From the NCBI GenBank assembly GCA_002919235.1, contig PKEX01000029.1:48583-112582 (forward strand): a stretch of 64,000 bases of DNA. The letters are read 5' to 3'. Position numbers and translations under genes: made by a program. The stretch is from Clostridia bacterium (lineage in GTDB: Bacteria; Bacillota; Limnochordia; DTU080; RSA5). Of the stretch, positions 961 to 21,244 are shown in pieces. Every line of letters starts with the position of its first letter. Position 1 is the stretch's first letter. The notes below the pieces were generated by a model. The model had not been told where the DNA came from. It saw only the letters and a program-made list of their open reading frames with translations, and did no database searches.

Positions 961-2259
961 TTACTCTCCTTCAACCCGGATGACGTTGGCGACGCTGCGC
1001 ACCACGGGCAGGGCGGCGATTTGCTTCAGCGCCGCCTGCATGTTCCTCTCCAGCACCTTGTGGGTGACGAACACCAGGCTGACCGGGTCTTCTCCCCTGC
1101 CCTTTTGAATGACGGAACTGATGCTCACTTCGTGGTCGCCGAAGGCCTTCGCAATCTGGGCTAGGACGCCGGGGCTGTCCACCACTTTGGCGTGCACGTA
1201 ATAGGACGAAACCACTTCCAAGGGCGACAGGACCCGCTTCTCCCGAACCGCCCCGCCGAGCCGGCCGTCCACCCCGCGGCGGATGTTCTGAGCCGCCTCC
1301 ACGATGTCGGCCACCACGGCGCTTCCCGTGGGAAGCTTGCCGGCGCCCCGGCCGTAAAACATCAGCTCGCCCACGGCGTCGCCCTCGATAAAGATGGCGT
1401 TGAACACGTCGTTGACGGCGGCCAGCGGGTGCTCTTTGGGCACCATGGTCGGGTGCACTCGGGCCTCGATGGTCTCCTCGTGGGCCTTGGCGATGGCGAG
1501 GAGCTTGATCACGTAGCCCAGCTCGTCCGCGTACGCCATATCTTCCGGCGTCACCCGGGTGATCCCCTCACGGTACACGTCGTCCACGGCCACGGGGGTC
1601 TCAAAAGCCAGCGACGCGAGGATGGCCAGCTTGTACGCGGCGTCGTGCCCTTCCACGTCCGACGTGGGATCCGCCTCGGCGTACCCCATCTCCTGGGCCT
1701 CTCTCAGGACCTCTTCGAACGGCCGTCCCTCGTGCGCCATCTTGGTCAGCATGTAGTTGGTAGTCCCGTTGATGATCCCCATGATCGCCTGGACCTCGTT
1801 GGCGACCAGGGCTTCCTTGATGGACTTGATGATGGGGATGCCGCCGGCGACGGCCGCCTCGAAATAGAGCCCTACCCGGTGTTCCCGGGCCAGCTGGATC
1901 AGCTCGCGGCCGTGCTTGGCGATGACGTCCTTGTTGGCCGTCACCACGTGCTTGCCCCGCTCCAGCGCCCCCGCGATGTAGCTCCTGGCCGGCTCGACCC
2001 GGCCGCCGGGGCAGCCGATGAGCTCGACGACGATGTCGATCGAAGGATCGTCCAGGATCTCCCCGGCGTCGGTGGTGATCCGTTCCAAAGCCACGGGGAC
2101 GCTGCGGGTCTTCGACGCATCCCGCACCAGGATCCGGCTGATCTCGATGGGGCCGCCGGAGCGGTGGGCAAGCTGCTCCGCGTGCTTTGCCATGATTTCG
2201 ACGACGCCGGAACCGACGGTGCCGAGGCCCATCAGCCCGACGCGGACCGGTGAGTGCAA
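961..2259 (-). CDS. hom: homoserine dehydrogenase
   Basis: 432 aa: [17 protein letters not shown]-binding N-terminus, a Hom catalytic core and a C-terminal ACT domain. TTG start with RBS GAAAGGAAG 6 nt upstream. Confidence 0.93.
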
Positions 2260-3428: not shown

Positions 3429-3707
3429 TTACTGCTGGAGGATCGCGTCCTTCAACGCTTTGCCAGGGCGGAAAACCGGCACCCGGCGCGCCCCAATCTC
3501 GATGGTCCTCCCCGTCTGGGGGTTCCGGCCGACGCGAGGCGCCCGCTCGCGCACCTCAAAGCTGCCAAAACCGACCAGCTGCACCTTATCTCCTTGGGCC
3601 AGCGCCGCCTGGATCGATTCGAACATCGCGTCGACCGCGGACGCCGCTTCCTTCTTGGAAAGGTTTCCCCTGGCCGCGACCTGGTCGATGAGCTCCGCCT
3701 TGTTCAT
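3429..3707 (-). CDS. hup: DNA-binding protein HU
   Basis: Internal ATG gives a 92-aa protein, [32 protein letters not shown]...[28 protein letters not shown], preceded by RBS GAGGAGGGTG. The track ORF 3429..3950 has a spurious N-terminal extension. Confidence 0.93.
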
Positions 3708-5387: not shown

Positions 5388-6404
5388 CTAGGAGAACAAG
5401 TCGAGGAGCTCGCTCTTGGGGTCCCTCCCCATGAGCTCCCACACGGCGGTCTCCGGCCTCTTGCCGCCGAAGAGGACGTCGCTGACGGCCTTGGTAATCG
5501 GCATCTCGACGCCCATGCGCTCTGCGAGGACCAGTGCCGCCCGGCACGTGGGAATGCCTTCGATGACCATCGGGGTCGAGCGGATCACGTCCTCCACGGG
5601 CACGCCCTGACCGATGAGGCGGCCTGCCCGGGCGTTCCGGCTATGCGTGCTGCTGCACGTGGCTACCAGATCTCCGACTCCCGACAGGCCGCTGAAGGTG
5701 ATGGGATGGGCCCCCATGGCGATGCCCAGGCGGGCGATCTCCACCAGGCCCCGGGTGATGATGGCGGCCTTCGTGTTGTCGCCGAACCCCAGGCCGTCCG
5801 CGATGCCGGCGGCCAAGGCGATGACGTTCTTCAACGCGCCGCCCAGTTCCACCCCGACCACGTCGTCGCTGGTGTAGACGCGGAACATGGGGGCCATCAA
5901 GAGCTCCTGCCACGCGCCGGCGGTCTCGGCTTGGTAGGCGGCCACGACGGTGGCGGTCGGCAGGCCTTTGGCCACCTCCTCGGCATGGTTTGGGCCGGAG
6001 AGGACGGCCAGCTGCCGCTTATCCAGTTTGCCGCCGTCGAGCAGCACTTCGGAGAGCCGCCGGCCGGTGGCGATCTCGATCCCTTTGGCCGTGTTGACCA
6101 CGGAATGCATCGGGGTGATATACGGCGACAGCCGCTCCCACACGCTGCGCAGCCCTTGGGAGGGGACGGCCAGGATCAAGAAGGGGAGCCGGGCCACTTC
6201 CTCCAGTTCCGAGGTGACCTCCACCGCCTCGGGCAAGCGGTGGCCAGGAAGATAGGTCTCGTTCACCCGGGTGGTGCGGAGCCGCTCCGCCTTGGCCGGG
6301 TCGCGCGCCCAGAGGGCGACGCGGCGGCCCCGGCGGGCGAGAAGAATAGACAGGGCGCTTCCCCACCCGCCTGCGCCCACAATCCCGACGGCCGCGTCCT
6401 TCAC
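5388..6404 (-). CDS. gpsA: NAD(P)H-dependent glycerol-3-phosphate dehydrogenase
   Basis: GIVGAGGWGSAL Rossmann motif and GpsA core. GTG start overlaps the plsY stop (GTGA). The track's upstream extension is rejected. Confidence 0.9.
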   Translation of the reverse strand: MKDAAVGIVGAGGWGSALSILLARRGRRVALWARDPAKAERLRTTRVNETYLPGHRLPEAVEVTSELEEVARLPFLILAVPSQGLRSVWERLSPYITPMHSVVNTAKGIEIATGRRLSEVLLDGGKLDKRQLAVLSGPNHAEEVAKGLPTATVVAAYQAETAGAWQELLMAPMFRVYTSDDVVGVELGGALKNVIALAAGIADGLGFGDNTKAAIITRGLVEIARLGIAMGAHPITFSGLSGVGDLVATCSSTHSRNARAGRLIGQGVPVEDVIRSTPMVIEGIPTCRAALVLAERMGVEMPITKAVSDVLFGGKRPETAVWELMGRDPKSELLDLFS

Positions 6405-7012
6405 CGGCGTTCCATCCTCTCCGTGGCCCGCTCGCCGAACCGGTACTCCGTCCCTGCCAGCAGGCGGCTCAGATTGGACCGGTGCCGCCAAAAGGCGAGA
6501 AGACTGATGAGAGCGGCGCTGGCCACGTACTGGGGGCCGTGCCCCAGCGCCCACAAGAGCACCGGCATGGCCACCGCTCCCGTAAGCGACGCGACCGAAA
6601 TGTAGCGGGTGGCGAACACCACCAGCGCCCACACGGCGAGAAGCGCCGCCGCCACCCTAAGGTCCAGGGCGAGGGCGACCCCCAGCGCCGTCGCGATGCC
6701 TTTTCCGCCGTTGAACTTCAAGAACACGGACCAGACGTGTCCCGCGACGGCACCGAACCCCGCAGCCGCGACGGTCCAGTCGGAAAGGCCCAGGCCCTGC
6801 GCGGCCGCCACCGGGACCGCCCCTTTGAGGACGTCCAGGACCAGGACGACGGTGGCCGCCGCCTTGCCCACCGTGCGCATCACGTTGGACGTGCCGATGT
6901 TGCCGCTGCCGTGCTCCCGCACGTCCACCGATCCCCAAAGCTTTCCGACGATCAAGCCGAAGGGGATCGAACCCAAAAGGTAACTTCCAAGAAGCAAGAC
7001 AAACCCGGTCAT
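6401..7012 (-). CDS. plsY: glycerol-3-phosphate acyltransferase PlsY
   Basis: 203 aa multi-TM protein with GSGNIGTSNVMR, an FKFNGGKG-like stretch and other PlsY signature regions. Confidence 0.92.
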   Translation of the reverse strand: MTGFVLLLGSYLLGSIPFGLIVGKLWGSVDVREHGSGNIGTSNVMRTVGKAAATVVLVLDVLKGAVPVAAAQGLGLSDWTVAAAGFGAVAGHVWSVFLKFNGGKGIATALGVALALDLRVAAALLAVWALVVFATRYISVASLTGAVAMPVLLWALGHGPQYVASAALISLLAFWRHRSNLSRLLAGTEYRFGERATERMERR

Positions 7013-7045
7013 ATCCTTCCCTCGCCCCCGGTCCGCCGGTCCGTC

Positions 7046-8359
7046 CTACTCCCGCTTGCGCAGGCGGAATCGGATCGGCGTTCCGACGAACCCGAAGTTC
7101 TCCCTCAGCTGGTTTTCGAGATACCGCAAGTAAGAGTAGTGCATCAGTTTCGGCTCGTTGACGAACAAGACGAAGGTGGGCGGTTTGACGCCCGACTGAG
7201 TGCCGTAGTAGATCCGCAGGCGCTCTCCTTTGTCCGTAGGCGGCTCAAGCCGCATGGTCGCCTGGTGAAGCACCTCGTTGAGCCGTCCCGTCGAGATCCT
7301 CAAGGCGTGCTGGTTCGCAACGTAATGCGCCAGCTCGAAGACCCGGTGAACCCGCTGGCCGGTCTTGGCGGAGAGGAAGAGGATCGGCGCGTACTGGAGA
7401 AAGCCCAGCTGCTCACGGATCTGCTCTTCAAAGCGGTCTGCCGTCTTGTCGTCCTTTTCGACGAGGTCCCACTTGTTGACGCCGATGATCATGCCCTTGC
7501 CGGCCTCATGGGCGTAGCCCGCGATCCGCTTGTCCTGCTCGGTGACGAGTTCGGTGGCGTCCAGGAGCAGGACGCAGACGTCGGCCCGGTCGACGGCCCG
7601 CAGCGCCCGGATGACGCTGTAGCGCTCCACCGGCTCTTCGATCCGGCTGCGCCGCCGGATGCCCGCCGTATCGATCAGCGTGTAGCGGATCCCGTCCCGG
7701 GTCACGTGGGAGTCCAGCGCGTCCCGCGTAGTGCCCGGGATCTCCGTGACGATGCTGCGCTCTTCTCCCAGCATCCGGTTGACCAGCGACGACTTGCCCA
7801 CGTTGGGCCGGCCGATGACGGCGACGCGCACCTCGTCTTCCGCCTCGTCCTCCTCCCCACCGGCCGGCAGCAGCTGGATCATCCGGTCCAAAAGATCGGC
7901 GATCCCAAGGCCGTGCTCGGCCGAGACCGGCAGAGGGTCGCCCAACCCCAGGGCGTAAAACTCCGCGGCCTGAGGGACCAGCCGCCGGTGGTCCACCTTG
8001 TTGGCTACCACCAGCACCGGCTTCTGCGAGCGGCGAAGGGCGCCGGCCACCTCCTGGTCAGGGGCGACCAGCCCGTCCCGGGCGTCGACCACGAACAGGA
8101 TGACGTCGGCCTCCTCGACGGCCAGCTCCGCCTGGCGCCGCGCGAGGGCGGCGAAGCCTTCCCTTGCCCCGAAGTCGATTCCGCCGGTGTCCACCAGGAT
8201 GAAGCGGCGCCCCTGCCACTGGCACTCGGCGTAGATCCGGTCGCGCGTCACTCCCGGCTCGCCTTCGACGATGGCCAGCCGGCGGCCGGCGATGCGGTTG
8301 AAGAGGGCCGACTTTCCTACGTTCGGACGTCCGACGATGGCGACGATTCCTTTGGCCAC
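7046..8359 (-). CDS. der: ribosome-biogenesis GTPase Der (EngA)
   Basis: 437 aa with two tandem GTPase domains (GRPNVGKS twice) and a KH-like C-terminal domain. GTG start with RBS GAAGGTG. Confidence 0.95.
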   Translation of the reverse strand: MAKGIVAIVGRPNVGKSALFNRIAGRRLAIVEGEPGVTRDRIYAECQWQGRRFILVDTGGIDFGAREGFAALARRQAELAVEEADVILFVVDARDGLVAPDQEVAGALRRSQKPVLVVANKVDHRRLVPQAAEFYALGLGDPLPVSAEHGLGIADLLDRMIQLLPAGGEEDEAEDEVRVAVIGRPNVGKSSLVNRMLGEERSIVTEIPGTTRDALDSHVTRDGIRYTLIDTAGIRRRSRIEEPVERYSVIRALRAVDRADVCVLLLDATELVTEQDKRIAGYAHEAGKGMIIGVNKWDLVEKDDKTADRFEEQIREQLGFLQYAPILFLSAKTGQRVHRVFELAHYVANQHALRISTGRLNEVLHQATMRLEPPTDKGERLRIYYGTQSGVKPPTFVLFVNEPKLMHYSYLRYLENQLRENFGFVGTPIRFRLRKRE

Positions 8360-11966: not shown

Positions 11967-12039
11967 GGCACTCCCTCGCTTTCCACGAACGCTTGCGCCT
12001 TGCGCGGAAAGTAGACTGCCCTTCCCCTTCGCGCGGTAT

Positions 12040-12073
12040 ACAAAAAGGGGTAAGGCGCCGTGCGCCTTACCCC
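12040..12073 (-). terminator. rho-independent terminator after rpsA
   Basis: Minus-strand RNA: GGGGUAAGGCGC-ACG-GCGCCUUACCCC (12-bp perfect stem), followed by UUUUUGU. It lies 52 nt after the rpsA stop. Confidence 0.7.
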
Positions 12074-12124
12074 ACTGTGCATCTGCTCATGCCCGGTGCC
12101 CGCTCCGGGGCTCCGGGCTGCCCG

Positions 12125-13516
12125 TCACTGGTCTTTGAAGAGGTTGCCCAAGTCTTCAAAGACCTCGCCCAGTGTCACCGGGGGCGCCTCCCCGCTGGTG
12201 GTGCGAGGCTCGGGGCGCGAGCCCCCGCGCCGGCCGCGCGGCCGCTCCGGCTGAGGCGAGCGCATGGAGAGGCCGATGCGGCGCCGTTCGGGGTCGACGC
12301 TGACCACCCGCACCTCCACCTCGTCGCCGGGACGCACCACTTCGGCCGGATCGTTGACGTGATAATCGGCGAGCTGCGAGATGTGGACGAGGCCCTCGAT
12401 CCCGTCCTCCAGCTTGACAAAGGCGCCGAAGTCGACGACCCGGGTGACTGTTCCCTGGACCGTGGCGCCCACGGGATACCGCTCGGCCGCGGCCAGCCAG
12501 GGGTCGGGGAGGGTCTCTCGCAGGCTCAAGGAGATCCGCTCGCTTTCGGGATCCACCTTGAGGACCATCACCTCGATGGTCTGGCCTTCCTTCACCACGT
12601 CCGACGGGTGAGCCACACGGCTCCAGGCCATCTCCGACACGTGCAGCAGGCCTTCGACGCCGCCGCCCACGTCGACGAAGGCGCCGAAATCGGTGATCCG
12701 GCGGACGACGCCGGTGACGATGGTCCCTTCCTTAAGCTTGGCGAAGGCCTCCGCCTTGGCCCGCTCGTACTCCTCCTCCAGCACCTGCTTGTGGGAGAGA
12801 ACCACGTTGTTGCGCTGGCGGTCGAGCTCGATCACCTTCAGCCTCAGCGTCTGCCCGACGTACTCCTCGAGGTTTTCCACGTAGTTGCGGCCCACGTGCG
12901 ACGCCGGGATGAATCCCCGCACGCCGACGTCCACCAAGAGGCCGCCCTTCACCCGTTCGATGACGGGGGCCTCGATCACCTCGCCGTTGGCCATGGCCCG
13001 CTCCAGCCGCTGCCAGGCCATGCGGCTGTCGGCTCGCCTCTTGGAGAGAAGCACGTTGCCTTCGGCATCCTCGATTTTAAGAACGAAGACGTCGATTTCG
13101 TCGCCGACGGAGACCACGTCGTGCGGTGTCTGACCCGATCGCAGGCCGAGCTCGTAGAGGGGAATCCTGCCCTCGAACTTGTACCCGACGTCTACCATGA
13201 CCTCGCCGTCCCCGACCTGGACCACTTTGCCCTTGACGATCTGTCCAGGCTCCAGGGTGACGAAGCTTGCGTCGTACTCGGCCATTTTGTCGGAAGGCGA
13301 GTCCACGGGGGTTTCGCCGTCCGCTGCGCTCTCCTCAGCGGCGCCTGCCGCCTCGGCCGCCTCGCCGGCGGAGGGTTCGCTCCCCGCCCCGGCCTCCGGC
13401 TCCCGGTGAAGCCCGGCCTCACCGGTCCCGGCGTCCTGGCCGAGATCCTGCTTTTGCTCTTCGTCCATGGCAGCCACTTCCGTCTCGAAGGCGCCGCCGT
13501 CTTGCCGTTCGATCAT
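12125..13516 (-). CDS. rpsA: 30S ribosomal protein S1 homolog (four S1 domains, acidic N-terminal extension)
   Basis: 463 aa with repeated S1 motifs (GxV.G.V..I..FGAFV). RBS AGGGGGGA 8 nt upstream of the ATG. Confidence 0.9.
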   Translation of the reverse strand: MIERQDGGAFETEVAAMDEEQKQDLGQDAGTGEAGLHREPEAGAGSEPSAGEAAEAAGAAEESAADGETPVDSPSDKMAEYDASFVTLEPGQIVKGKVVQVGDGEVMVDVGYKFEGRIPLYELGLRSGQTPHDVVSVGDEIDVFVLKIEDAEGNVLLSKRRADSRMAWQRLERAMANGEVIEAPVIERVKGGLLVDVGVRGFIPASHVGRNYVENLEEYVGQTLRLKVIELDRQRNNVVLSHKQVLEEEYERAKAEAFAKLKEGTIVTGVVRRITDFGAFVDVGGGVEGLLHVSEMAWSRVAHPSDVVKEGQTIEVMVLKVDPESERISLSLRETLPDPWLAAAERYPVGATVQGTVTRVVDFGAFVKLEDGIEGLVHISQLADYHVNDPAEVVRPGDEVEVRVVSVDPERRRIGLSMRSPQPERPRGRRGGSRPEPRTTSGEAPPVTLGEVFEDLGNLFKDQ

Positions 13517-13548
13517 TCAGGAAGTCCCCCCTAACGCGTGCCTGACAA

Positions 13549-13588
13549 CCAGCGCTCAGCCTGTCGATGGAGTCTATTTGAGCGCTGG
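13549..13588 (-). promoter_or_regulatory. stable hairpin in the rpsA 5' leader (10-bp stem CCAGCGCUCA/UGAGCGCUGG, ~20-nt loop)
   Basis: Seen in sequence 30-70 nt upstream of the rpsA start. It is followed upstream by a second hairpin, GGCUCCC-N10-GGGAGCC (13598-13625). The 310-nt intergenic region is unusually long for this locus. Confidence 0.4.
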
Positions 13589-13826
13589 AAAGCGCCGCGG
13601 CTCCCCGGCAAGGGCGGGAGCCCCGCGCTTCCATGATGAATTGAGATCAAAGCGTCACCAGCGACGGCGGTCCCCCCTAGTATTCGCAGGCGTGTTTCCC
13701 ATTGCTCACGGGCAATGCGCTTAGTCATTCTTGCTCGTCTAGAGGATTCCTTCCCGCTCGGCTGGGCAAATCCCTCTTGCGGGAACGCTGTCCGGGGAGA
13801 AGACGGCCCTTTCCCCGGTCCGCCCG

Positions 13827-14438
13827 TCACCTCTCCCCCCGGACGAGCTTTTCGATTTCCTGCATCATCCGCTGGTTGATCCGTTCCACGGCCTCCTTCG
13901 ATTCGCCGTCCCGGTGTTCCGACAGGTCGATGGGCTCGCCGAACCGGACGATGAACCGGTTGATCCTGGGGATGCCCCGTTCGAAGCGAAGCGGCCGGAA
14001 CGTGCCAATGAGGGCTACAGGCACCACCGGGACGCCGGCCCGCAGGGCGATGAGCCCGGCCCCGCGCTGCGGGGGCAGGAGCTCGCCGGTCTGGGTCCGG
14101 GTTCCTTCGGGGAAGATCCCCACCACTTCCCCCCGCTGCAGCACCTCGATGGCGGTCCGGACCGCGCTGCGGTCGGCTGCGCCGCGGCGGACGGGAAAGG
14201 CGTGAAGCCGGGAGATGGCCCACGAGAGGACGGGGATCTCGAACAGTTCCGCCTTGGCCATGAAGTGCACGGGGCGGGGCGAGGCAAACCCCAAGAGCGG
14301 CGGGTCGAGGGCGCTGGCGTGGTTGGCGACCAGCAGGACGCCGCCGGTCTTGGGCACCCGCTCCCGCCCCTCCACGGAGAGGCGGAACACCGTGTAAAAG
14401 AGGATTCCAAAGAGGATCCGGCCGATCAGGTAGAGCAC
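13827..14438 (-). CDS. plsC: 1-acyl-sn-glycerol-3-phosphate acyltransferase
   Basis: 203 aa with the NHASALD (HX4D) and FPEGTR acyltransferase motifs. Confidence 0.9.
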
Positions 14439-15118
14439 ACGGTCCCTCCTTTCCGGGCGCAGAGGGCGAGAATCTCATCGACCACTTGGCCCACGGAGCG
14501 CCCCGTGGTGTCGATTTCCACCGCGTCCTCCGCCTTGACCAGCGGGGAATGCTCCCGTGAGCTGTCGACCCGGTCGCGCCTTTGGATCGCTTCCAGCACC
14601 TCGCCGTAGGTGACCCGGTCGCCGCGAGCCACGAGCTCCCGGTAGCGCCGCCGCGCCCGCTCCTCCGGAGAGGCCGTCAAGAACACCTTCACGTCCGCCT
14701 CCGGCAGCACCACGGTGCCGATGTCGCGGCCGTCCATCACCACGCCGCCGCCTGCGCTCATCTGCCGCTGGAGCCGCACCAGGGCTTCCCGCACCGCCGG
14801 GTGCTTCGCCACGTGGGGGACGGCTTCGCCCACGTCGGCCCGGCGGATGGCGGCGGTGACGTCCTCGCCGTCCAGCAGCACCCGCACGCCCGCCGCGCCG
14901 TCCACCAGGCGCACGTCCGCGGCCGCCGCGGCGCGGCTTACGGCCACCTCGTCCCGCACGTCGATCCCGTCCAAAAGGCAGCGGAGGGCGACGGCGCGGT
15001 ACATGGCGCCCGAGTCGACATAAAGATAGCCCAGCGCCCGGGCGACTTCCCGGGCCACGGTGCTCTTTCCGGCACCTGCTGGACCGTCGATGGCAACGGT
15101 GAGTTTACGGCATCCCAT
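14426..15118 (-). CDS. cmk: cytidylate kinase
   Basis: 230 aa. IDGPAGAGKST P-loop and Cmk core. Confidence 0.93.
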   Translation of the reverse strand: MGCRKLTVAIDGPAGAGKSTVAREVARALGYLYVDSGAMYRAVALRCLLDGIDVRDEVAVSRAAAAADVRLVDGAAGVRVLLDGEDVTAAIRRADVGEAVPHVAKHPAVREALVRLQRQMSAGGGVVMDGRDIGTVVLPEADVKVFLTASPEERARRRYRELVARGDRVTYGEVLEAIQRRDRVDSSREHSPLVKAEDAVEIDTTGRSVGQVVDEILALCARKGGTVCST

Positions 15119-15133
15119 GGAGCGGGTCTCCCT

Positions 15134-16237
15134 TTACGACCTGGACCAGACCCGGTAGCCTTCCCGGGTCAGCAGCCGGGCCGCCTGTTCCCTGTCGGCC
15201 CACCGCTCGAAGCCCAGGCGCAGGGTGCCCCCTTCACCTTCCCTGACCCGCAAGATCTCGATGTCGATGATGTTGATCCCGGCCCCGGCCAGCACTCCCG
15301 TCACTTCGTGGATAGCTCCCGGGCGGTCCACCACATGCACGACGATTTCATGCACGGTGGACAAGATTCCTTTCGACTTCGCGGGCAGCTTCTCCCTCAC
15401 CTGGCGGGAAAATGCCAGCATTTCCTTGAGCCCGGCCTCGTCGCGCCGGGCCAAGGTTTCCCTCAGACTACGCAGCAAAGCTTCGAAACGCTCTAGTCCC
15501 TGGACGATTTGGGAAACGTTGGTCATGCAGATGTCCGTCCACACCGCCTCCGGACCGGAGGCGACCCGGGTGGTGTCGCGAAAACCCCCGGCGGCCAGCT
15601 CCAGGACGCCGGGAATCTCTCCCGCCCGCTCCGCGGCGAGCCGCACCAGGGCGGCCGCCAGGAGGTGCGGGATGTGGCTTACGGTGGCGACGATGGCGTC
15701 GTGCACATCGGGGTTCATCAGCAGCGGGCGGGCGCCGGCGGCCTGCACCAGCTCTGCCAGCAGGTCGACCGCATCCTGGGCCGCCCGCTCGTGGGGGACC
15801 AGGATGTAGGGGGCGTTCTCAAAGAGATAGGGGTCGGCGGCCCGCACCCCGTCCCGCTCCGAGCCGGCCATGGGGTGGCCGCCGACGAACCGCTCCTCGC
15901 CCCCGCTGCTCCAGATGGCGCGGCAGATTTCGCCTTTGGTGCTCCCGACGTCGCTCACCACCGCCCCGGGCTTGAGATAGGGCTGGAGGGCGCGGTAGAC
16001 CGGCACGATGGAGCGCACCGGCGGCGCCAGGATGACCACGTCGGCCTCCCGCACCCCCTCCTCGAGATCCAGCGTCCCGCGGTCGATGGCTCCCAGGGCC
16101 AGCGCTTCGTCGATGGTCTCGGACCGGCGGGCGACCCCTACCACCTCGGAGACGGCGCCCGCCGCCTTCCACGCCATTCCCAGGGAGCCGCCGATGAGTC
16201 CTACGCCGACGATGCTCACGCGAGGTTTGCTGCGCAT
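15134..16237 (-). CDS. tyrA: prephenate dehydrogenase with C-terminal ACT domain
   Basis: 367 aa. [14 protein letters not shown] motif, TyrA core and C-terminal ACT domain. Confidence 0.9.
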
Positions 16238-17259
16238 GGCTGCTCCAGCACGTACCGGCCCACCGCCCGGGCCACTTGATCCACGGCCTTCATCATCTGT
16301 TCAAACACCTCCGGCCGCAGCGACTGCGGGCCGTCGGACAGCGCCTCTTCGGGCCGCGGGTGCACCTCGACGATGAGGCCGTCGGCTCCCGCGGCGACAC
16401 CCGCTTTGGCCATGCCGGTCACGTACTTCCACTTGCCCGTGCCGTGGCTGGGGTCGACGATGACCGGCAGGTGGCTCAGTTCGTGCACCGCCACCACCGC
16501 GCTGAGGTCCAGCGTGTTGCGGGTCTCCGTCTCGAAGGTGCGAATGCCCCGCTCGCAGAGGACCACGTGGGGGTTGCCGGCGGAGATGATGTATTCGGCG
16601 GCCATCAGCCACTCGTTGATGGTCGCGGAGAGTCCCCGTTTGAGCAGGACCGGCTTCTTGGTCCGCCCCACCTCCGTCAGGAGGGTGAAGTTCTGCATGT
16701 TGCGGGCGCCGATCTGGAACATGTCCGCGTACTCGGCCACGGTCTCCACGTCCCGGGGGTTTACCACCTCGGTGACGATGCCCAGGCCGGTCTCCTCCCG
16801 GGCCTCCGCCAAGAGCTTGAGCCCTTCTTCGGCCAGTCCCTGGAACGAATAGGGGGAAGTCCTGGGCTTATAGGCGCCGCCCCGCAGGAGGTGGGCGCCG
16901 GCCGCCTTCACCAGCCTGGCCGTCTCGAGCAGCTGCTCCCTGCTCTCCACCGCACAGGGACCCGCGATGACGGGAACGTGGGCGCCGCCGAAGACGACGC
17001 CGGCCACGTTCACCTGCGTGCGCTCTTGCCTAAACTCTTTGCTGGCCAGCTTGTACGGCTGGAGAATGGGGATGATCCGCTGCACGCCCGGCGTCGCTTC
17101 GATCTGCTGGATCTTTTCGGCCGTCTTCTCCCCGATCGCTCCGATCACGGTCCGCTCCACGCCCTTGGACAGGTGGACGTCGAAGCCGAAGTCCCGGAGC
17201 CGTTTGATCACCTGCTCGATCATTTCGTCGGTCGCGCCCGGCTCCATGACCACGATCAT
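16216..17259 (-). CDS. 3-deoxy-7-phosphoheptulonate (DAHP) synthase with N-terminal regulatory domain
   Basis: 347 aa. The KDO8P/DAHP synthase type I-beta core ([25 protein letters not shown]) follows a ~60-aa ferredoxin-like N-terminal domain. Confidence 0.9.
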
Positions 17260-18383
17260 GCTCCAACCTCTCCCTTCGTCGCCGCCGCTTCGAGGACGGC
17301 GGCCAGCGCGTCGATCAAACGCTGGTTCTGCTCCGGCGTGCCGATGCTGATGCGGAGCGCGGTGGGGCAGCCGAAGGAGCTGCCGGCCCTCACGATGACG
17401 CCGCGCTCCAAGAGGCCCCGGTACACCTCGTCGCTGGGCCGGCCGAGGTCGACCCAGACGAAGTTGGCCTGAGACGGGTAGGGCCGCAGGCCCAGCGCCT
17501 TGAGCTCCTGCGCCAGCCGCTGGCGTTCGGCCCGGTTGATCCGGCGGCTCATCTCGATGTGTTCGGTGTCTTGCAGTGCGGCGACGGCCGCGGCCTGGGC
17601 CACCCGGTTGACGTTGAACGGAGGGCGCACCCGCTCCAGCGTCTCGATGACGTCGACGGGCCCCACGGCGTAGCCGACCCGCAGGCCCGCGAGGCCGTGG
17701 ATCTTGGAGAAGGTGCGGGTCGAGACCACCCTCCTGCCTTCCCGGATGAGCTCCAGCACGTCCGGGAAATCGGGAGCCTCGACATACTCCACGTACGCCT
17801 CGTCGAACACCACCAGCGTCTCCCCGGGGATCGCGTCCAGGAAGCGGAGGACCTCTGCCCGGGTGACGTAGGTGCCGGTGGGGTTGTTGGGATTGCAGAC
17901 GAAGACAAGGCGGGCCCGGTGCTTGCGGGCCCGGTACGCCATCTCCCAGAGGTCGTGGACCCCTTCTTTCAGCGGGACGCTCACTTCTTCCGCGTCCATC
18001 AGGCGGGTGACGAAGGCGTACTGGCTGAAGGTGGTCTGGGCGAAGACGGCGCTCCGTCCCGGTTCCAGGTACGCCTCGGCCAGCATCCGGAAGATCTCGT
18101 CCGAGCCGCAGCCCACCGCAACCTGCCGGGGGTCGACGTCCAGGTGCCGTCCCAGCGCCTCCCGCAGCGCTCGCGAGGCGCCGTCGGGGTACAAGTGGAT
18201 CTCGCCGGCGGCCCTAGCCGCGGCTTCCCGGGCCAGGCGGCCCGCGCCGTAAGGGTTTTCGTTCGACGAAAGCTTAATCGCGTCGTGGACGCCGAAGAGG
18301 CGACGCGCGTCCTCGGCCGATGTCCCGGGGACGTAAGGCTGGATCCTTTCAAGCGCCCGCCGCGCTGGGCTTGCCACTGGCAC
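17256..18383 (-). CDS. hisC: histidinol-phosphate aminotransferase
   Basis: 375 aa. Class II aminotransferase with [10 protein letters not shown], the VCNPNNPTG stretch, and [14 protein letters not shown] carrying the PLP lysine. Confidence 0.92.
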
Positions 18384-18768
18384 TCCCCCCTGAAGCGGCG
18401 CCGGCCCAATCGGGCCTGAGCGCTGCGGCTTCTCTCAAATAGACGTGGCGGACCGGCTGTCCGGCCTTCACGTAGGCGTGGACCAGCGCCCGGATGCAGC
18501 GGGGCTGGCTGCCTGGCACGGGGATCTCCTGCGCGCAGAGGAGCGCCGTGTTGACCAGGCCTGCCTCCCTCGCACCGACGGCGGGAAAGGCCGAGACGAG
18601 ATCCGCGGTGGCCGTGAAGATGGCGCTGACGATGTCGTCGGGCGCCAAGCCGTTTTGCGCCAGGAGCTCCTGGGTCAGCTCCCTGGCCGCCGCGATCACC
18701 TGCTCCGGTTCGTCGGCCTCCACGGTGATGGCCCCCCGTATCGCCTTGAGTTCATGCACCTCATTCAC
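18349..18768 (-). CDS. aroH: chorismate mutase, AroH class
   Basis: About 139 aa from GTG, aligning to B. subtilis AroH (IRGAITV...VSAFPA...RHVYLREAAALRPD). The track ORF 18349..19233 carries a spurious Arg/Gly-rich extension. The exact start is uncertain. Confidence 0.8.
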   Translation of the reverse strand: MNEVHELKAIRGAITVEADEPEQVIAAARELTQELLAQNGLAPDDIVSAIFTATADLVSAFPAVGAREAGLVNTALLCAQEIPVPGSQPRCIRALVHAYVKAGQPVRHVYLREAAALRPDWAGAASGGSASGKPSAAGA

Positions 18769-19211
18769 CCCGCTCTGTCGTTCCCCTCGTGCGTTCCCGG
18801 CACCGCGCGGTGGCCCACGGCCACGGCCACGTCGTCCAGGTGAAGAAGGCCGATGCCGACGTAGAGCGCCACTGCCACGTGGTCGCCTCCCCGGGCGATG
18901 CCGATCTTGCCGCCGATGTTGAGCCCCAGCGCCTTTGGGAGGAGCTGCTGAACCGCTTCGTGGGCGGCGCCGGCCACGGCGCCCTCCTCCGCGTGGCGGT
19001 CGCCGATGACGCCCTCTCGCTTCGCTGCGACCACCGCTCGCTCGACGATCCGCTTCACCATGGACGAAAACTCGCCCCCGTAGTCCACCCCCGCGGTCCG
19101 GATGCCGGCGGCGGAAAAGATCTCCTGGAGCGCCTTCTCCTCGTCGCGGTCCTCGGTGAGGGCGACGCGGATGGCAGCTTTCGCCACCGCTCTGCTGAGC
19201 GACGCAGGCAC
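18765..19211 (-). CDS. HutP-family protein (RNA-binding antiterminator-like)
   Basis: 148 aa from GTG 19211, with GGAGG 8 nt upstream. By recall it aligns to B. subtilis HutP: EGVIGDRHAEEGAVAGAAHEAV vs SGVIQSEGYRESHALYHATMEAL; HVAVALYVGIG vs WIAVSLYGTIG; VAVGHRAV vs GVGINHI. Its stop overlaps the aroH start. Confidence 0.55.
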   Translation of the reverse strand: MPASLSRAVAKAAIRVALTEDRDEEKALQEIFSAAGIRTAGVDYGGEFSSMVKRIVERAVVAAKREGVIGDRHAEEGAVAGAAHEAVQQLLPKALGLNIGGKIGIARGGDHVAVALYVGIGLLHLDDVAVAVGHRAVPGTHEGNDRAG

Positions 19212-19284
19212 GCTCCACACCTCCTCGTGACACCTCTCACGCCGGGCGGCTCCCCGGGGCGGGCGCACCGCACTCGCTTTTCGG

Positions 19285-19317
19285 GAAAACAAAAAAACAC
19301 CCTCCGGCAGGAGAGTG
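19285..19317 (-). terminator. rho-independent terminator after rluB
   Basis: Minus-strand RNA: CACUCUCC-UGCC-GGAGGGUG (8-bp stem with one G-U pair), followed by UUUUUUUGUUUU. Confidence 0.7.
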
Positions 19318-19416
19318 CAGCGAGCGCCGGCCGCGCCCAGCAGCGGCGGGCGACGAGCAGCGCGGCGGATTGTCCACGGCGCCTCACGCGGCTGGGAACC
19401 CTGCTCTCCTACCGTA

Positions 19417-20148
19417 CTACCCTGTCCCAGCGTCCAATTGGACTGATTGTTTCAGCGCCGCAACCTCAGACTCCTTCAAGAATCTGAACTTCCCCGGAGG
19501 AAGATTTCCCAGGCGGAGCGGACCGTAGGCGATGCGGATCAGCCGTCGCACCGAAAGGCCCACCGCCTTGGCCATCCGGCGCACCTGGCGGTTGCGCCCT
19601 TCGTGGATGCCGATCTCAAGCCAAGTCCCGTCTTCTCGCCGGGAGAGGACCTGGACCCGGGCCGGCGCCGTCATGCCGTCGTCCAGCATGACCCCCTCCC
19701 GCAAGCGCTTGAGCGCTGCGCCGGTCACCTTCCCTGCCACGCACACCCGGTACACCTTGACCACTTCAAAGGATGGATGCATGAGGCGGTGAGCCAGCTC
19801 CCCGTCGTTGGTGAGCACGAGGAGCCCTTCGGAGTCGTAGTCGAGGCGGCCTACGGGAAAGAGCCGCTCCGGGACGCCGGGGACGAGGTCCAGCACCGTC
19901 GCGCGGCCCTGCGGGTCCCTCAAGGTGGTGACGACGCCCCTGGGCTTGTGCAGCATGAGGTAAACCAAGCGCGGGAAGACCACGGGCCGGCCGTCCACTT
20001 CGACCCGGTCCGTGGCAGGGTCGACGCGGACGCCGAGTTCGGTAACCACCTGGCCGTTCACCCGGACGCGGCCCGAGGCGATCAGCTCTTCGGCCCGCCG
20101 GCGGGACGCGATCCCGGCCCGGGCGATCACCTTTTGAAGCCGTTCCAT
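19417..20148 (-). CDS. rluB: 23S rRNA pseudouridine synthase RluB
   Basis: 243 aa. S4 domain followed by the RsuA/RluB catalytic core (HKPRGVVTT, GRLDYDSEGLL). Confidence 0.92.
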   Translation of the reverse strand: MERLQKVIARAGIASRRRAEELIASGRVRVNGQVVTELGVRVDPATDRVEVDGRPVVFPRLVYLMLHKPRGVVTTLRDPQGRATVLDLVPGVPERLFPVGRLDYDSEGLLVLTNDGELAHRLMHPSFEVVKVYRVCVAGKVTGAALKRLREGVMLDDGMTAPARVQVLSRREDGTWLEIGIHEGRNRQVRRMAKAVGLSVRRLIRIAYGPLRLGNLPPGKFRFLKESEVAALKQSVQLDAGTG

Positions 20149-20233
20149 ACCAATCCCTTCGCACAGGCACGCGGGCTAGCGCCATTATAGCACAGCGCCC
20201 GCCGGCGCTGGCAAGGAACGGCCCGGGCGAGGA

Positions 20234-20653
20234 TCACTCAAGGTCCGGGTGCTGGCGGTAGCTGCCGTTGCCCCCCCGCGCCCCCACCATCGAGCGCACC
20301 TGGTCCAGAACGTGCGGGGCGAGGTCGATCAGCCGGTCGAGGACGACGTTGCTGTCGACGGGAAGGAGGCGCACCTCCCCTTGCCCGACGACGAGGAACG
20401 CCACGGGATTCACGGAGATGCCGGCGCCGCTGCCCCCGCCGAAGGGAAACTCGGCGCCTCCCGCCTTGCCCCCGGCCTCGTACTCCGTGCCGCCCGCGGC
20501 AAAGCCCAGGCTGACCCGGGAGACGGGGACCACCACCGTGCCGTCGGGGGTCTCCACCGGGTCGCCCAGGATGGTGTTGACGTCGACGATGGCTTTGATG
20601 CTCTCCATGGCGGTCTGCATCAAGCCCTCGATGGGGTGGCGCATCTCCTCCAC
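20234..20653 (-). CDS. ytfJ: spore protein YtfJ (GerW family)
   Basis: 139 aa with a Gly-rich central region and the conserved IEGLMQTAMESIKAIVDVNTILG N-terminus. Confidence 0.85.
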   Translation of the reverse strand: MEEMRHPIEGLMQTAMESIKAIVDVNTILGDPVETPDGTVVVPVSRVSLGFAAGGTEYEAGGKAGGAEFPFGGGSGAGISVNPVAFLVVGQGEVRLLPVDSNVVLDRLIDLAPHVLDQVRSMVGARGGNGSYRQHPDLE

Positions 20654-20659
20654 GGCCTG

Positions 20660-21244
20660 TCACTCCCTCTGTGCGATGGCCCGCGCGGCGCGGGCGCCAC
20701 GGATAATGTCACCGAGGGTGAACCGGAATATGCAGGAGATTTCGAAGGCCAGCACCGTGCGGCGGTAGTCGGGGAGCACCCGGATCTCCGGCCGCCGCAA
20801 GAAGGCGCGCTCCCGGGCGAGGAAACCCACCAAGGCGGATTTGAGGGCCCACAGCACACCGGTGAGAACGGCGGTCGCGGCGGCGTCCCCCGTGCCCAGC
20901 TCCGTCCGCCATTCAAGCCTTTCGATCACCCGGAGAGCCGGCCGCAGCCGCCGGAGAATGCGCCGCACCCGCTGGATCGGGGCGGCGGGCCCGGAAGGCG
21001 GCGCCGTGCCCGGGCGGGCCCGGGCGCTGCCCGGAGCGCGCGCCGCCGGCCTGCCGTCGCGCCCGCCCAGGGGGATGCGGGCCGTGAGCGGACCCGCGCC
21101 CAGCACCAGCACGAGACGGGCCGCTTCCTCCCCGCGTGCGCTGCGGTAGCTGAAGCCGAGGCGGAGCGGCAGCCACAGCGCCGCGGCGGCCAGCAGGAGA
21201 AACGAGACGGCCAGCGCCGGCCACTGCCAGGACGTGGCAGCCAC
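20660..21244 (-). CDS. ytfI: DUF2953 (YtfI-like) membrane protein
   Basis: 194 aa with an N-terminal TM segment, sitting immediately upstream of ytfJ as in the conserved ytfI-ytfJ pair. Family assignment is from synteny and composition. Confidence 0.6.
   Translation of the reverse strand: MAATSWQWPALAVSFLLLAAAALWLPLRLGFSYRSARGEEAARLVLVLGAGPLTARIPLGGRDGRPAARAPGSARARPGTAPPSGPAAPIQRVRRILRRLRPALRVIERLEWRTELGTGDAAATAVLTGVLWALKSALVGFLARERAFLRRPEIRVLPDYRRTVLAFEISCIFRFTLGDIIRGARAARAIAQRE

Follow-up and report, generated by a model that had tools for sequence, protein, structure and literature searches.

HutP of Bacillus subtilis (PF09021; PDB 1VEA, 1WPV, 1WMQ, 3BOY) binds three XAG triplets per face of its hexamer, and its operator is composed of two UAG-N4-UAG-N4-UAG clusters separated by 12-17 nucleotides (nt) (PMC2425495). 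Another regulator of Bacillus, TRAP (MtrB), is an amino acid-loaded ring protein that occupies 9-11 evenly spaced (G/U)AG-type leader triplets with 2-3 nt spacers; by suppressing an antiterminator it causes a terminator to form, and at other genes it masks the ribosome-binding site. T-boxes and TRAP cover only parts of the aromatic pathway and, to our knowledge, the control of the common aromatic pathway and of its Phe/Tyr branch has not been worked out in Clostridia-class bacteria. The present work concerns a HutP-like gene, called HutPL here, and a repeated element located upstream of it on the (-) strand of a 64,000-nt stretch of a Clostridia bacterium (contig PKEX01000029.1, assembly GCA_002919235.1), hereafter the window. 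HutPL is a member of a large and uncharacterised sister clade of HutP, and we consider it probable that it is an RNA-binding feedback regulator of aromatic amino acid biosynthesis.

The initial annotation had reported an open reading frame (ORF) of 148 amino acids (aa) similar to HutP at positions 18765..19292. The 148-aa HutP-like gene is real, and these limits are those of the maximal ORF, which counts 175 aa when read from the first TTG; the likely coding sequence (18765..19211) starts at the GTG codon 19211..19209, and a relative at 81% identity has an ATG at the equivalent position. The more than 5,000 conserved homologues and the ribosome-binding site preceding the GTG codon argue for its translation. 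In a Pfam search, HutPL matched PF09021 and no other family, over the whole profile (1-128 of 128; E=3.9e-43, 147 bits for a cut-off of 25), B. subtilis HutP itself scoring 111 bits. No NCBIfam match was obtained for HutPL, including the curated equivalog that NCBI uses to name HutP. An AlphaFold2 model computed with 20 homologues (predicted local distance difference test 85.7, predicted template modelling score 0.82) displays the order a1-a2-b1-a3-a4-b2-b3-b4, and the four-stranded antiparallel sheet flanked by helices that defines the HutP fold is present in this predicted model. When the model was compared with the PDB by Foldseek, the first 11 matches were all HutP chains (1vea, 1wpv, 1wmq, 4h4l, 4ok9, 1wrn), with E values of 6e-8 to 1e-4, template modelling (TM) scores of 0.60-0.72 and a probability of 1.00, and the next match had a TM score of 0.33. 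Two of the checks proposed with the initial annotation, the search with the PF09021 profile and the comparison with HutP structures, 1wpv among them, therefore speak for the kinship.

At the level of pairwise sequence comparison, the similarity between HutPL and B. subtilis HutP is weak (~27% identity), which calls for caution about the family link; the B. subtilis sequence used for this comparison is 100% identical to PDB 1VEA. The HutP chains of the PDB were out of reach at E<1 both for phmmer with HutPL and for the subfamily profile, and a profile-profile comparison of the HutPL clade with true HutP gave a modest result (probability 79%, E 1.5e-5). Because the PDB sequence searches missed HutP, the family link rests on the Pfam hidden Markov model, the profile-profile alignment and the fold. 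Judged from these profiles and from the predicted structure, HutPL is a true but divergent relative of HutP.

The clade to which HutPL belongs contains more than 5,037 protein clusters at 60-83% identity to the window protein versus 768 clusters for true HutP, in which every named match among the best 120 comes from a Bacillus-type genus. The HutPL clade is ~6-7 times larger than the Bacillaceae HutP clade, and the HutP studied so far therefore represents a minority branch of the family. In a one-genome-per-species collection, HutPL was found in at least 380 species, from genera including Moorella, Thermincola, Pelotomaculum, Syntrophomonas, Desulfosporosinus, Petroclostridium and Acetivibrio. 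The two groups also carry different source names, 'HutP family protein' for the HutPL clade and 'hut operon transcriptional regulator HutP' for the Bacillaceae clade.

The L-histidine/Mg2+ site of HutP, which we take to consist of His73, His77 and His138 for the metal and of Tyr69, Glu81, Arg88 and Arg98 for the ligand, is invariant among true HutPs and is not conserved in HutPL. In the profile-profile alignment, His73 and His77 correspond to the invariant Gly77 and Gly81 of the window protein, Arg88 to Pro92, Arg98 to Leu97 and Tyr69 to an invariant His73, Glu81 being the only residue kept (Glu85). His138 falls beside the invariant H124 of HutPL, one column off in the MAFFT alignment. If the residue roles are as given above, these replacements argue against histidine as the effector of HutPL.

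The gene neighbourhood points to aromatic amino acids. The comparison covered 85 loci, each from a different species, whose downstream sequence was long enough. The gene directly downstream of HutPL is aroH, coding for an AroH-class chorismate mutase, in at least 73 of them, the gene of 3-deoxy-D-arabino-heptulosonate 7-phosphate (DAHP) synthase or aroA in 6 and cmk-plsC in 4. HutPL and aroH are separated by -8 to 146 nt, in most cases by fewer than 40 nt, and in 7 loci they overlap (-8 to -1 nt). Beyond aroH the gene content varies (hisC-DAHP synthase-tyrA(-aroA), trpEGDC, or cmk-plsC only), and cmk-plsC is found downstream of HutPL and the aro genes in most related loci. Five further close relatives (L087-L091; related loci are designated by L numbers) share the order of the window, scpA-scpB-DUF2953-ytfJ-rluB-HutPL-aroH-hisC-DAHP synthase-tyrA. 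The constant partners of HutPL are thus aroH and DAHP synthase, not hisC, so that the link to histidine is probably incidental; the connection through hisC hinted at by the initial annotation is not sustained across the loci. The initial annotation noted that no hut operon is present here; HutPL is followed by aroH, hisC, DAHP synthase and tyrA, no hut gene was detected among the genes flanking it, the check having covered these flanks and not the whole genome, and none among the proteins searched in 91 related loci. As for the proposed coupling by start/stop overlaps, it is present from HutPL and aroH (GTGA) through hisC and DAHP synthase to tyrA, but a 15-nt gap separates tyrA from cmk. HutP proper is encoded in front of hutHUIGM, with a regulated terminator between hutP and hutH, whereas no terminator follows HutPL, which overlaps aroH.

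The proposed RNA target was first spotted in the spacers between HutPL and aroH as a recurring pattern such as TAGAATGGCAGAATGGAGG. In 84 non-redundant loci, a triple GGNAG with a period of 8 (at least 11 of the 12 fixed bases) had 28 matches on the sense strand and 0 on the antisense strand, 23 of the 28 being within -350..+700 of HutPL. Periods of 5, 6, 7, 9, 10 and 11 gave 2-15 sense matches each, few of them near HutPL. The position weight matrix (PWM) derived from the element has the consensus GGTAG-nAY-GGTAG-nAY-GGnAG and, at 14 bits or more, yielded 67 sense and 0 antisense matches, distributed over 45 loci of this set. Once merged, the matches are located before aroH (17), HutPL (15) and DAHP synthase (13), with 6 elsewhere and 4 inside genes. 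The third unit often coincides with the GGAGG ribosome-binding site of aroH or of several DAHP synthase genes, 14-31 nt before the start codon. NAG repeats at the N4 spacing of HutP, and at N3 or N6, showed no clear clustering near HutPL. The search for NAG-N4 repeats suggested at the outset has led to a three-unit element, but its units are GGYAG with a period of 8. Rfam contains no family matching positions 12000..21000 of the window at E values up to 1 and, for 15 related loci at the gathering score, nothing except an unrelated riboswitch and an intron.

When metagenomes were scanned starting from the motif, 120 stretches were kept, mostly chance matches or 8-nt tandem arrays, of which 3 were informative. 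In two of them (L103 and L203) the motif lies on the same strand upstream of a DAHP synthase gene, with no HutPL in the flank examined, and in the third (L132) on the same strand upstream of HutPL, the distances being 118-250 nt; by a rough estimate, fewer than 0.1 such cases are expected by chance. Tandem arrays of the 8-mer GGTAGNAY unrelated to aro genes, in metagenome contigs (L159 ~1005..1414, with up to 27 overlapping matches; L099, L101, L145, L173, L200), look like simple repeats and are a source of false positives for motif scans.

In the window, a matrix built without the window's own clade gives the site in front of HutPL 19.6 bits, the next score being 11.3 over ~128,000 positions (both strands of the 64 kb), and 1 of 2000 shuffles of the leader reached the score of the site. 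The sequence GGTAG-NAC-GGTAGGAGAGCAG is kept in the window, L005 and L020/L087, and variant GGYAG repeats are present in L088-L091, while the leader between the site and the terminator arm (60-150 nt) diverges in sequence and in length among the leaders of the clade. No operator-like site was found at the aroH or DAHP synthase starts of the window (best score 6 bits), and the entire operon appears to be served by the one site in the leader. Compared with the HutP operator, the window has one cluster of three period-8 units, and some other leaders have a second cluster.

A stem, called P1 (CUGGGA(AG)/(CU)UCCCAG), holds the repeats of the window in a loop of ~27 nt. It is present in the RNAfold structures of 6 of the 7 distinct clade leaders (the window, L005 and L088-L091), with a length of 5-9 bp, longer in L089-L091; the folded segment of L020 does not form it. 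The rluB stop codon provides the TAG of the first unit and the last codons of rluB make up the 5' strand of P1, so that a ribosome finishing rluB translation would be positioned over the putative operator. This overlap could couple rluB translation to attenuation, or reflect a shrinkage of the spacer in this clade.

Two side observations bear on the distribution of the units. Pairs of GGYAG clusters 20-80 nt apart occur in several DAHP synthase or HutPL leaders (L036 ~5678..5780, L074 ~5654..5760, L057, L017, L068, L103) and are reminiscent of HutP, whose hexamer has its two faces wrapped by two XAG sites. In other loci, the conserved N-terminus M-x-Y-G-S-K of HutPL is encoded by ..TAC GGT AGY.., that is one ACGGTAG unit over the start codon (L008 2467, L011 2118, L055 4987, L082 4987; weak PWM scores of 14-16 bits). 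This unit could represent an additional site of autoregulation or a coincidence of the coding sequence, and the N-terminus encoded in the window does not have it.

Between the element and the gene stands what the initial annotation had called a strong rluB terminator. A hairpin with a T-rich tail is indeed found there, ~74 nt from the HutPL start codon, but its sequence context indicates that it is most likely the attenuator of the HutPL-aro operon. The segment GGUAGGAGAG, formed by unit 2 and the following spacer, is complementary to CUCUCCUGCC, which belongs to the 5' arm and the loop of the terminator. In the window, the duplex between the repeats and the 5' arm amounts to -18.9 to -21.0 kcal/mol versus -14.0 kcal/mol for the terminator hairpin, and in 7 clade leaders to -14.6 to -24.2 versus -11.8 to -21.5 kcal/mol. 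This complementarity is kept in 7 of 7 clade leaders despite differing terminators, and the minimum-energy fold of the whole leader contains the repeat/terminator pairing in L005, L020 and L007. The sequence CUCUCCU is conserved in 6 terminator 5' arms of the clade, and L091 has the shifted form CCUCUCU. A general rule, according to which all downstream terminators would carry CYRCC, the exact complement of the repeat unit, was rejected: the motif is enriched (5 of 21 versus 25 of 501 other terminators) and not general.

A good sigma-A promoter (TTTACA, 17-18 nt, TGnTATACT; 10/12 matches) stands just 5' of the element in L089 and L090, and the order promoter-element-terminator-gene was also recognized by eye in L007, L009, L025, L033, L059 and L132. 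The homologous hairpin of the relatives thus lies between a sigma-A promoter and the HutPL gene, which would place the hairpin of the window inside the 5' untranslated region of the operon, as an attenuator. It would also explain the lack of a promoter in the 74 nt that follow the hairpin, a lack already pointed out by the initial annotation and confirmed here, as no sigma-70-like site was found in this interval or anywhere in 12000..21000. The coordinates of the features are collected in Table 1.

Table 1. Features of the HutPL locus in the window (positions of the 64,000-nt stretch).
Feature	Position	Strand	Basis or remark
HutPL (HutP-like gene), 148 aa, GTG start	18765..19211	(-)	PF09021 match, AlphaFold2 fold, start shared with relatives
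GGAGG ribosome-binding site of HutPL	19224..19220	(-)	8 nt 5' of GTG; read from sequence
Putative HutPL operator, three units, exact 8-nt period	19421..19401	(-)	Top PWM score in 64 kb
Operator unit 1, GGTAG	19421..19417	(-)	TAG is the rluB stop codon
Operator unit 2, GGTAG	19413..19409	(-)	Sequence
Operator unit 3, AGCAG	19405..19401	(-)	Sequence
Fourth CAG, one base out of register	19394..19392	(-)	Sequence
Stem P1, CUGGGA 19430..19425 / UCCCAG 19397..19392	19392..19430	(-)	RNAfold
Putative antiterminator strand GGUAGGAGAG (unit 2 and spacer)	19413..19404	(-)	Complementary to CUCUCCUGCC at 19315..19306
Intrinsic terminator, read as probable attenuator	19286..19318	(-)	Terminator scan; hairpin 19318..19297, then T7GT4
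Terminator 5' arm	19318..19310	(-)	
Terminator loop, UGCC	19309..19306	(-)	
Terminator 3' arm	19305..19297	(-)	
rluB	19417..20148	(-)	Upstream neighbour; Pfam/NCBIfam
aroH (AroH-class chorismate mutase)	18349..18768	(-)	PF07736 E=5e-41, TIGR01796; GTG overlaps HutPL stop (GTGA)
hisC (histidinol-phosphate/aromatic aminotransferase)	17256..18383	(-)	TIGR01141, 355 bits
DAHP synthase with N-terminal ferredoxin-like domain	16216..17259	(-)	PF00793 and PF18152, NF006421 520 bits
tyrA (prephenate dehydrogenase with ACT domain)	15134..16237	(-)	PF02153, PF20463, PF01842
cmk	14426..15118	(-)	PF02224 E=6e-74; distal gene
plsC	13827..14438	(-)	PF01553 E=1e-36; distal gene

The idea of the initial annotation that this HutP-like protein has a different RNA-level role or a different ligand is supported by the linkage to aroH, the replaced ligand residues and the repeat element. 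By analogy with HutP, HutPL would form an oligomer, presumably a hexamer with three RNA sites per face, and its effector-loaded form would bind the nascent messenger at three GGYAG units with an 8-nt period, at the very start of the leader in the case of the window (19421..19401). When the units are free, they would pair with the 5' arm of the terminator hairpin (19318..19297), and the resulting antiterminator would let the polymerase read into HutPL-aroH-hisC-aroF-tyrA(-cmk-plsC). When they are bound, the terminator would form and transcription would stop, HutPL thereby limiting its own synthesis. In other species, where aroH or the DAHP synthase gene has its Shine-Dalgarno sequence overlapped by the repeats, HutPL should prevent translation once bound. 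Termination and covering of the ribosome-binding site would both be repressive, which suits a control by end product. The effector is most likely Phe, Tyr or an intermediate of the pathway, and not histidine.

HutPL shares with HutP the family, the fold, a similar size (148 aa) and the position as first gene of its proposed target operon, as well as a proposed RNA target in which three purine-AG triplets recur at a fixed distance, close to an intrinsic terminator. It differs in that HutPL stands in a biosynthetic aro operon and HutP in a catabolic hut operon, the unit is GGYAG with a period of 8 instead of UAG with a period of 7, and the HutPL gene is downstream of the terminator whereas the HutP gene is upstream. 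The effect we propose for HutPL is termination or translation block, as opposed to antitermination by HutP, and the two clades belong to Clostridia and to Bacillaceae, respectively. With TRAP, HutPL would have in common the mode of action described above, since it appears to work as a loaded ring on evenly spaced triplets, disfavouring an antiterminator in the leader and covering ribosome-binding sites at other genes; the aromatic pathway and an aroH genomic neighbourhood are shared as well. In contrast, the folds and families are unrelated (PF02081 for TRAP), the window has three units with 5-nt spacers instead of the 9-11 triplets of TRAP, and TRAP is encoded outside the operon that it controls. 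A third parallel is PyrR of the B. subtilis pyr operon, also an autoregulating first gene of a biosynthetic operon behind the first attenuator, with further sites before downstream genes; PyrR, however, has a phosphoribosyltransferase fold and binds a structured stem-loop, the anti-antiterminator, rather than single-stranded triplet repeats.

TRAP-type operators were themselves observed in the related loci. They consist of 5-11 (G/U)AG triplets with 2-3 nt spacers, such as GAGCTGAGATGAGCTGAGATGAG, and lie between aroH and trpE in 17 loci with a trp operon; relative to the HutPL stop codon, the arrays lie, for example, at about +460 nt in L003, +565 in L025, +487 in L041, +453 in L067 and +1966 in L055, and they are distinct from the period-8 GGYAG element of the same loci. 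No TRAP homologue was detected by tblastn in the window or in the related 10-kb loci, which carry no mtrB, and TRAP homologues were of Bacillaceae only among the best 120 of 4,559 matches. The separate arrays before trpE suggest that tryptophan is sensed separately, leaving Phe, Tyr or a common intermediate as the best guesses for HutPL. The HutPL element and a TRAP-type system thus seem to coexist and to divide the pathway. At the scale of the family, we lean towards the proposal that a major HutP-family clade is a TRAP-like attenuation and translation repressor, which senses an aromatic amino acid or intermediate, reads period-8 GGYAG and controls a hutPL/aroH/DAHP synthase regulon in hundreds of Clostridia-class species beside TRAP-type trpE control, Bacillus HutP being a derived form with inverted logic.

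Several points weigh against these proposals. The assignment of the repeats to HutPL relies on their co-location and on the analogy with HutP, the hexameric state is presumed from the same analogy, and the identity of the effector is a guess. All loci of the main analysis were selected for carrying HutPL, a site of 14 bits or more is detectable in only about half of them, and a period of 8 with a GG prefix is unlike the HutP operator (UAG-N4, period 7). The alternative pairing stands out in L007 and in the clade of the window, but several other leaders are no better than shuffles, the z values outside the clade ranging from -4.4 to +0.85 with a mean of -1.0. Finally, no convincing promoter was found 5' of the element in the window itself, where a weak extended -10-like sequence (TGaAACAAT) is conserved neither in L005 nor in L020. 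A shortened spacer brings the end of rluB into the element in the window, L005, L020 and L087, and no convincing promoter was found there; read-through from rluB and a weak internal promoter are possibilities for transcription into the window leader.

In a rival reading, HutPL would bind the same repeats but act positively, as HutP does, promoting read-through when aromatic amino acids are scarce, for instance, or when a precursor is sensed, with positive autoregulation like that of bglG behind its own terminator. Antitermination is the function of the only family member characterised so far (PMC2425495, PMC12591593), the element precedes the terminator as it does in hut, and in the leaders whose complementarity to the terminator does not exceed that of shuffles the repeats need not be the antiterminator strand. 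In many loci, however, aroH or the DAHP synthase gene has the third repeat as its Shine-Dalgarno sequence, so that a bound protein should block ribosomes, and in the window's clade the repeats compete with the terminator, so that their occupation would favour termination. Moreover, unlike hut site II, no second XAG cluster lies inside the window terminator, and end-product repression is the usual logic of biosynthetic operons. We therefore regard a positive role as unlikely.

The tight and often translationally coupled pairing with aroH, visible in the 7 overlapping loci, is typical of subunits, and HutPL, in which the His/Mg pocket of HutP is not conserved, might instead be a partner or allosteric subunit of AroH, or a small-molecule binder, that does not bind RNA here. 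GGYAG would then be part of a riboswitch-like RNA, the stem P1 giving the leader some structure, or the site of another factor. Such a role appears improbable. No HutPL-AroH fusion was seen among the loci, and in some of them there is no aroH and HutPL immediately precedes DAHP synthase, aroA or cmk. Identical short units that recur with a fixed period on one strand, in some cases as the only conserved feature around a ribosome-binding site, are the signature of an oligomeric RNA binder, and the only family known to read XAG triplets in threes is encoded next door; as to a riboswitch, these leaders have no Rfam family. That a stray or decaying hutP copy, a plain rluB terminator and chance repeats would account for the whole locus is very improbable and contradicted by the comparative data, for although G-rich repeats and long spurious ORFs are common at the 67% G+C of the window, and no promoter was found near its element, the homologues at 60-83% identity span distant Clostridia, the gene order is conserved, the site is unique in 128,000 positions with its score reached by a single shuffle in 2000, and site and terminator arm are retained while the intervening 60-150 nt diverge.

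Other observations were made around HutPL in the related loci. Apparent HutPL-AroH fusions of 271-289 aa in L029, L031 and L057 were rejected, a stop codon being present in each. In L091 (GCA_964424335.1, 3477..4997), aroH and hisC are called as one gene of 506 aa (CM_1 and Aminotran_1_2 domains), either a fusion or the result of a lost stop codon. In many Clostridia, a HI0933-like flavoprotein gene and a gene for a 150-166 aa protein without Pfam match are located directly 5' of HutPL (for example L001 4041..5844, L003 4164..5950), a position occupied by rluB in the window's clade. A 180-aa gene without a Pfam match on record lies between aroH and DAHP synthase in L001 (Formimonas, 6797..7339); it matches by tblastn the gene after trpC in the trp operons of other loci and probably encodes a TrpF-like isomerase. 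In L025, a cyclic di-GMP-I riboswitch (46 bits for a gathering score of 35) was detected at 3471..3555 (-), on the opposite strand and directly 5' of the HutPL promoter region.

A full-text search of the literature found no paper linking HutP-family proteins to chorismate mutase or aromatic biosynthesis, and in a 2025 review of RNA-binding antiterminators HutP appears solely as the regulator of the Bacillus hut operon. Neither the protein family nor the class of mechanism is new; the novelty lies in the proposed operator, its regulon, the probable ligand and the direction in which control would be exerted. The finding offers a candidate regulator that occurs in at least 380 species and counts more than 5,000 clusters, together with a candidate RNA operator and a mechanism testable with a single purified protein and an RNA of 40 nt. 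For the engineering of acetogens and other industrial Clostridia, the operator could provide a compact RNA switch under ligand control. If the proposal is true, the misleading 'hut operon positive regulator' labels borne by thousands of genes would be corrected, one small fold would be used both for antitermination, in HutP, and for attenuation, in HutPL, and the family would represent a second answer, independent of TRAP, to the same problem.

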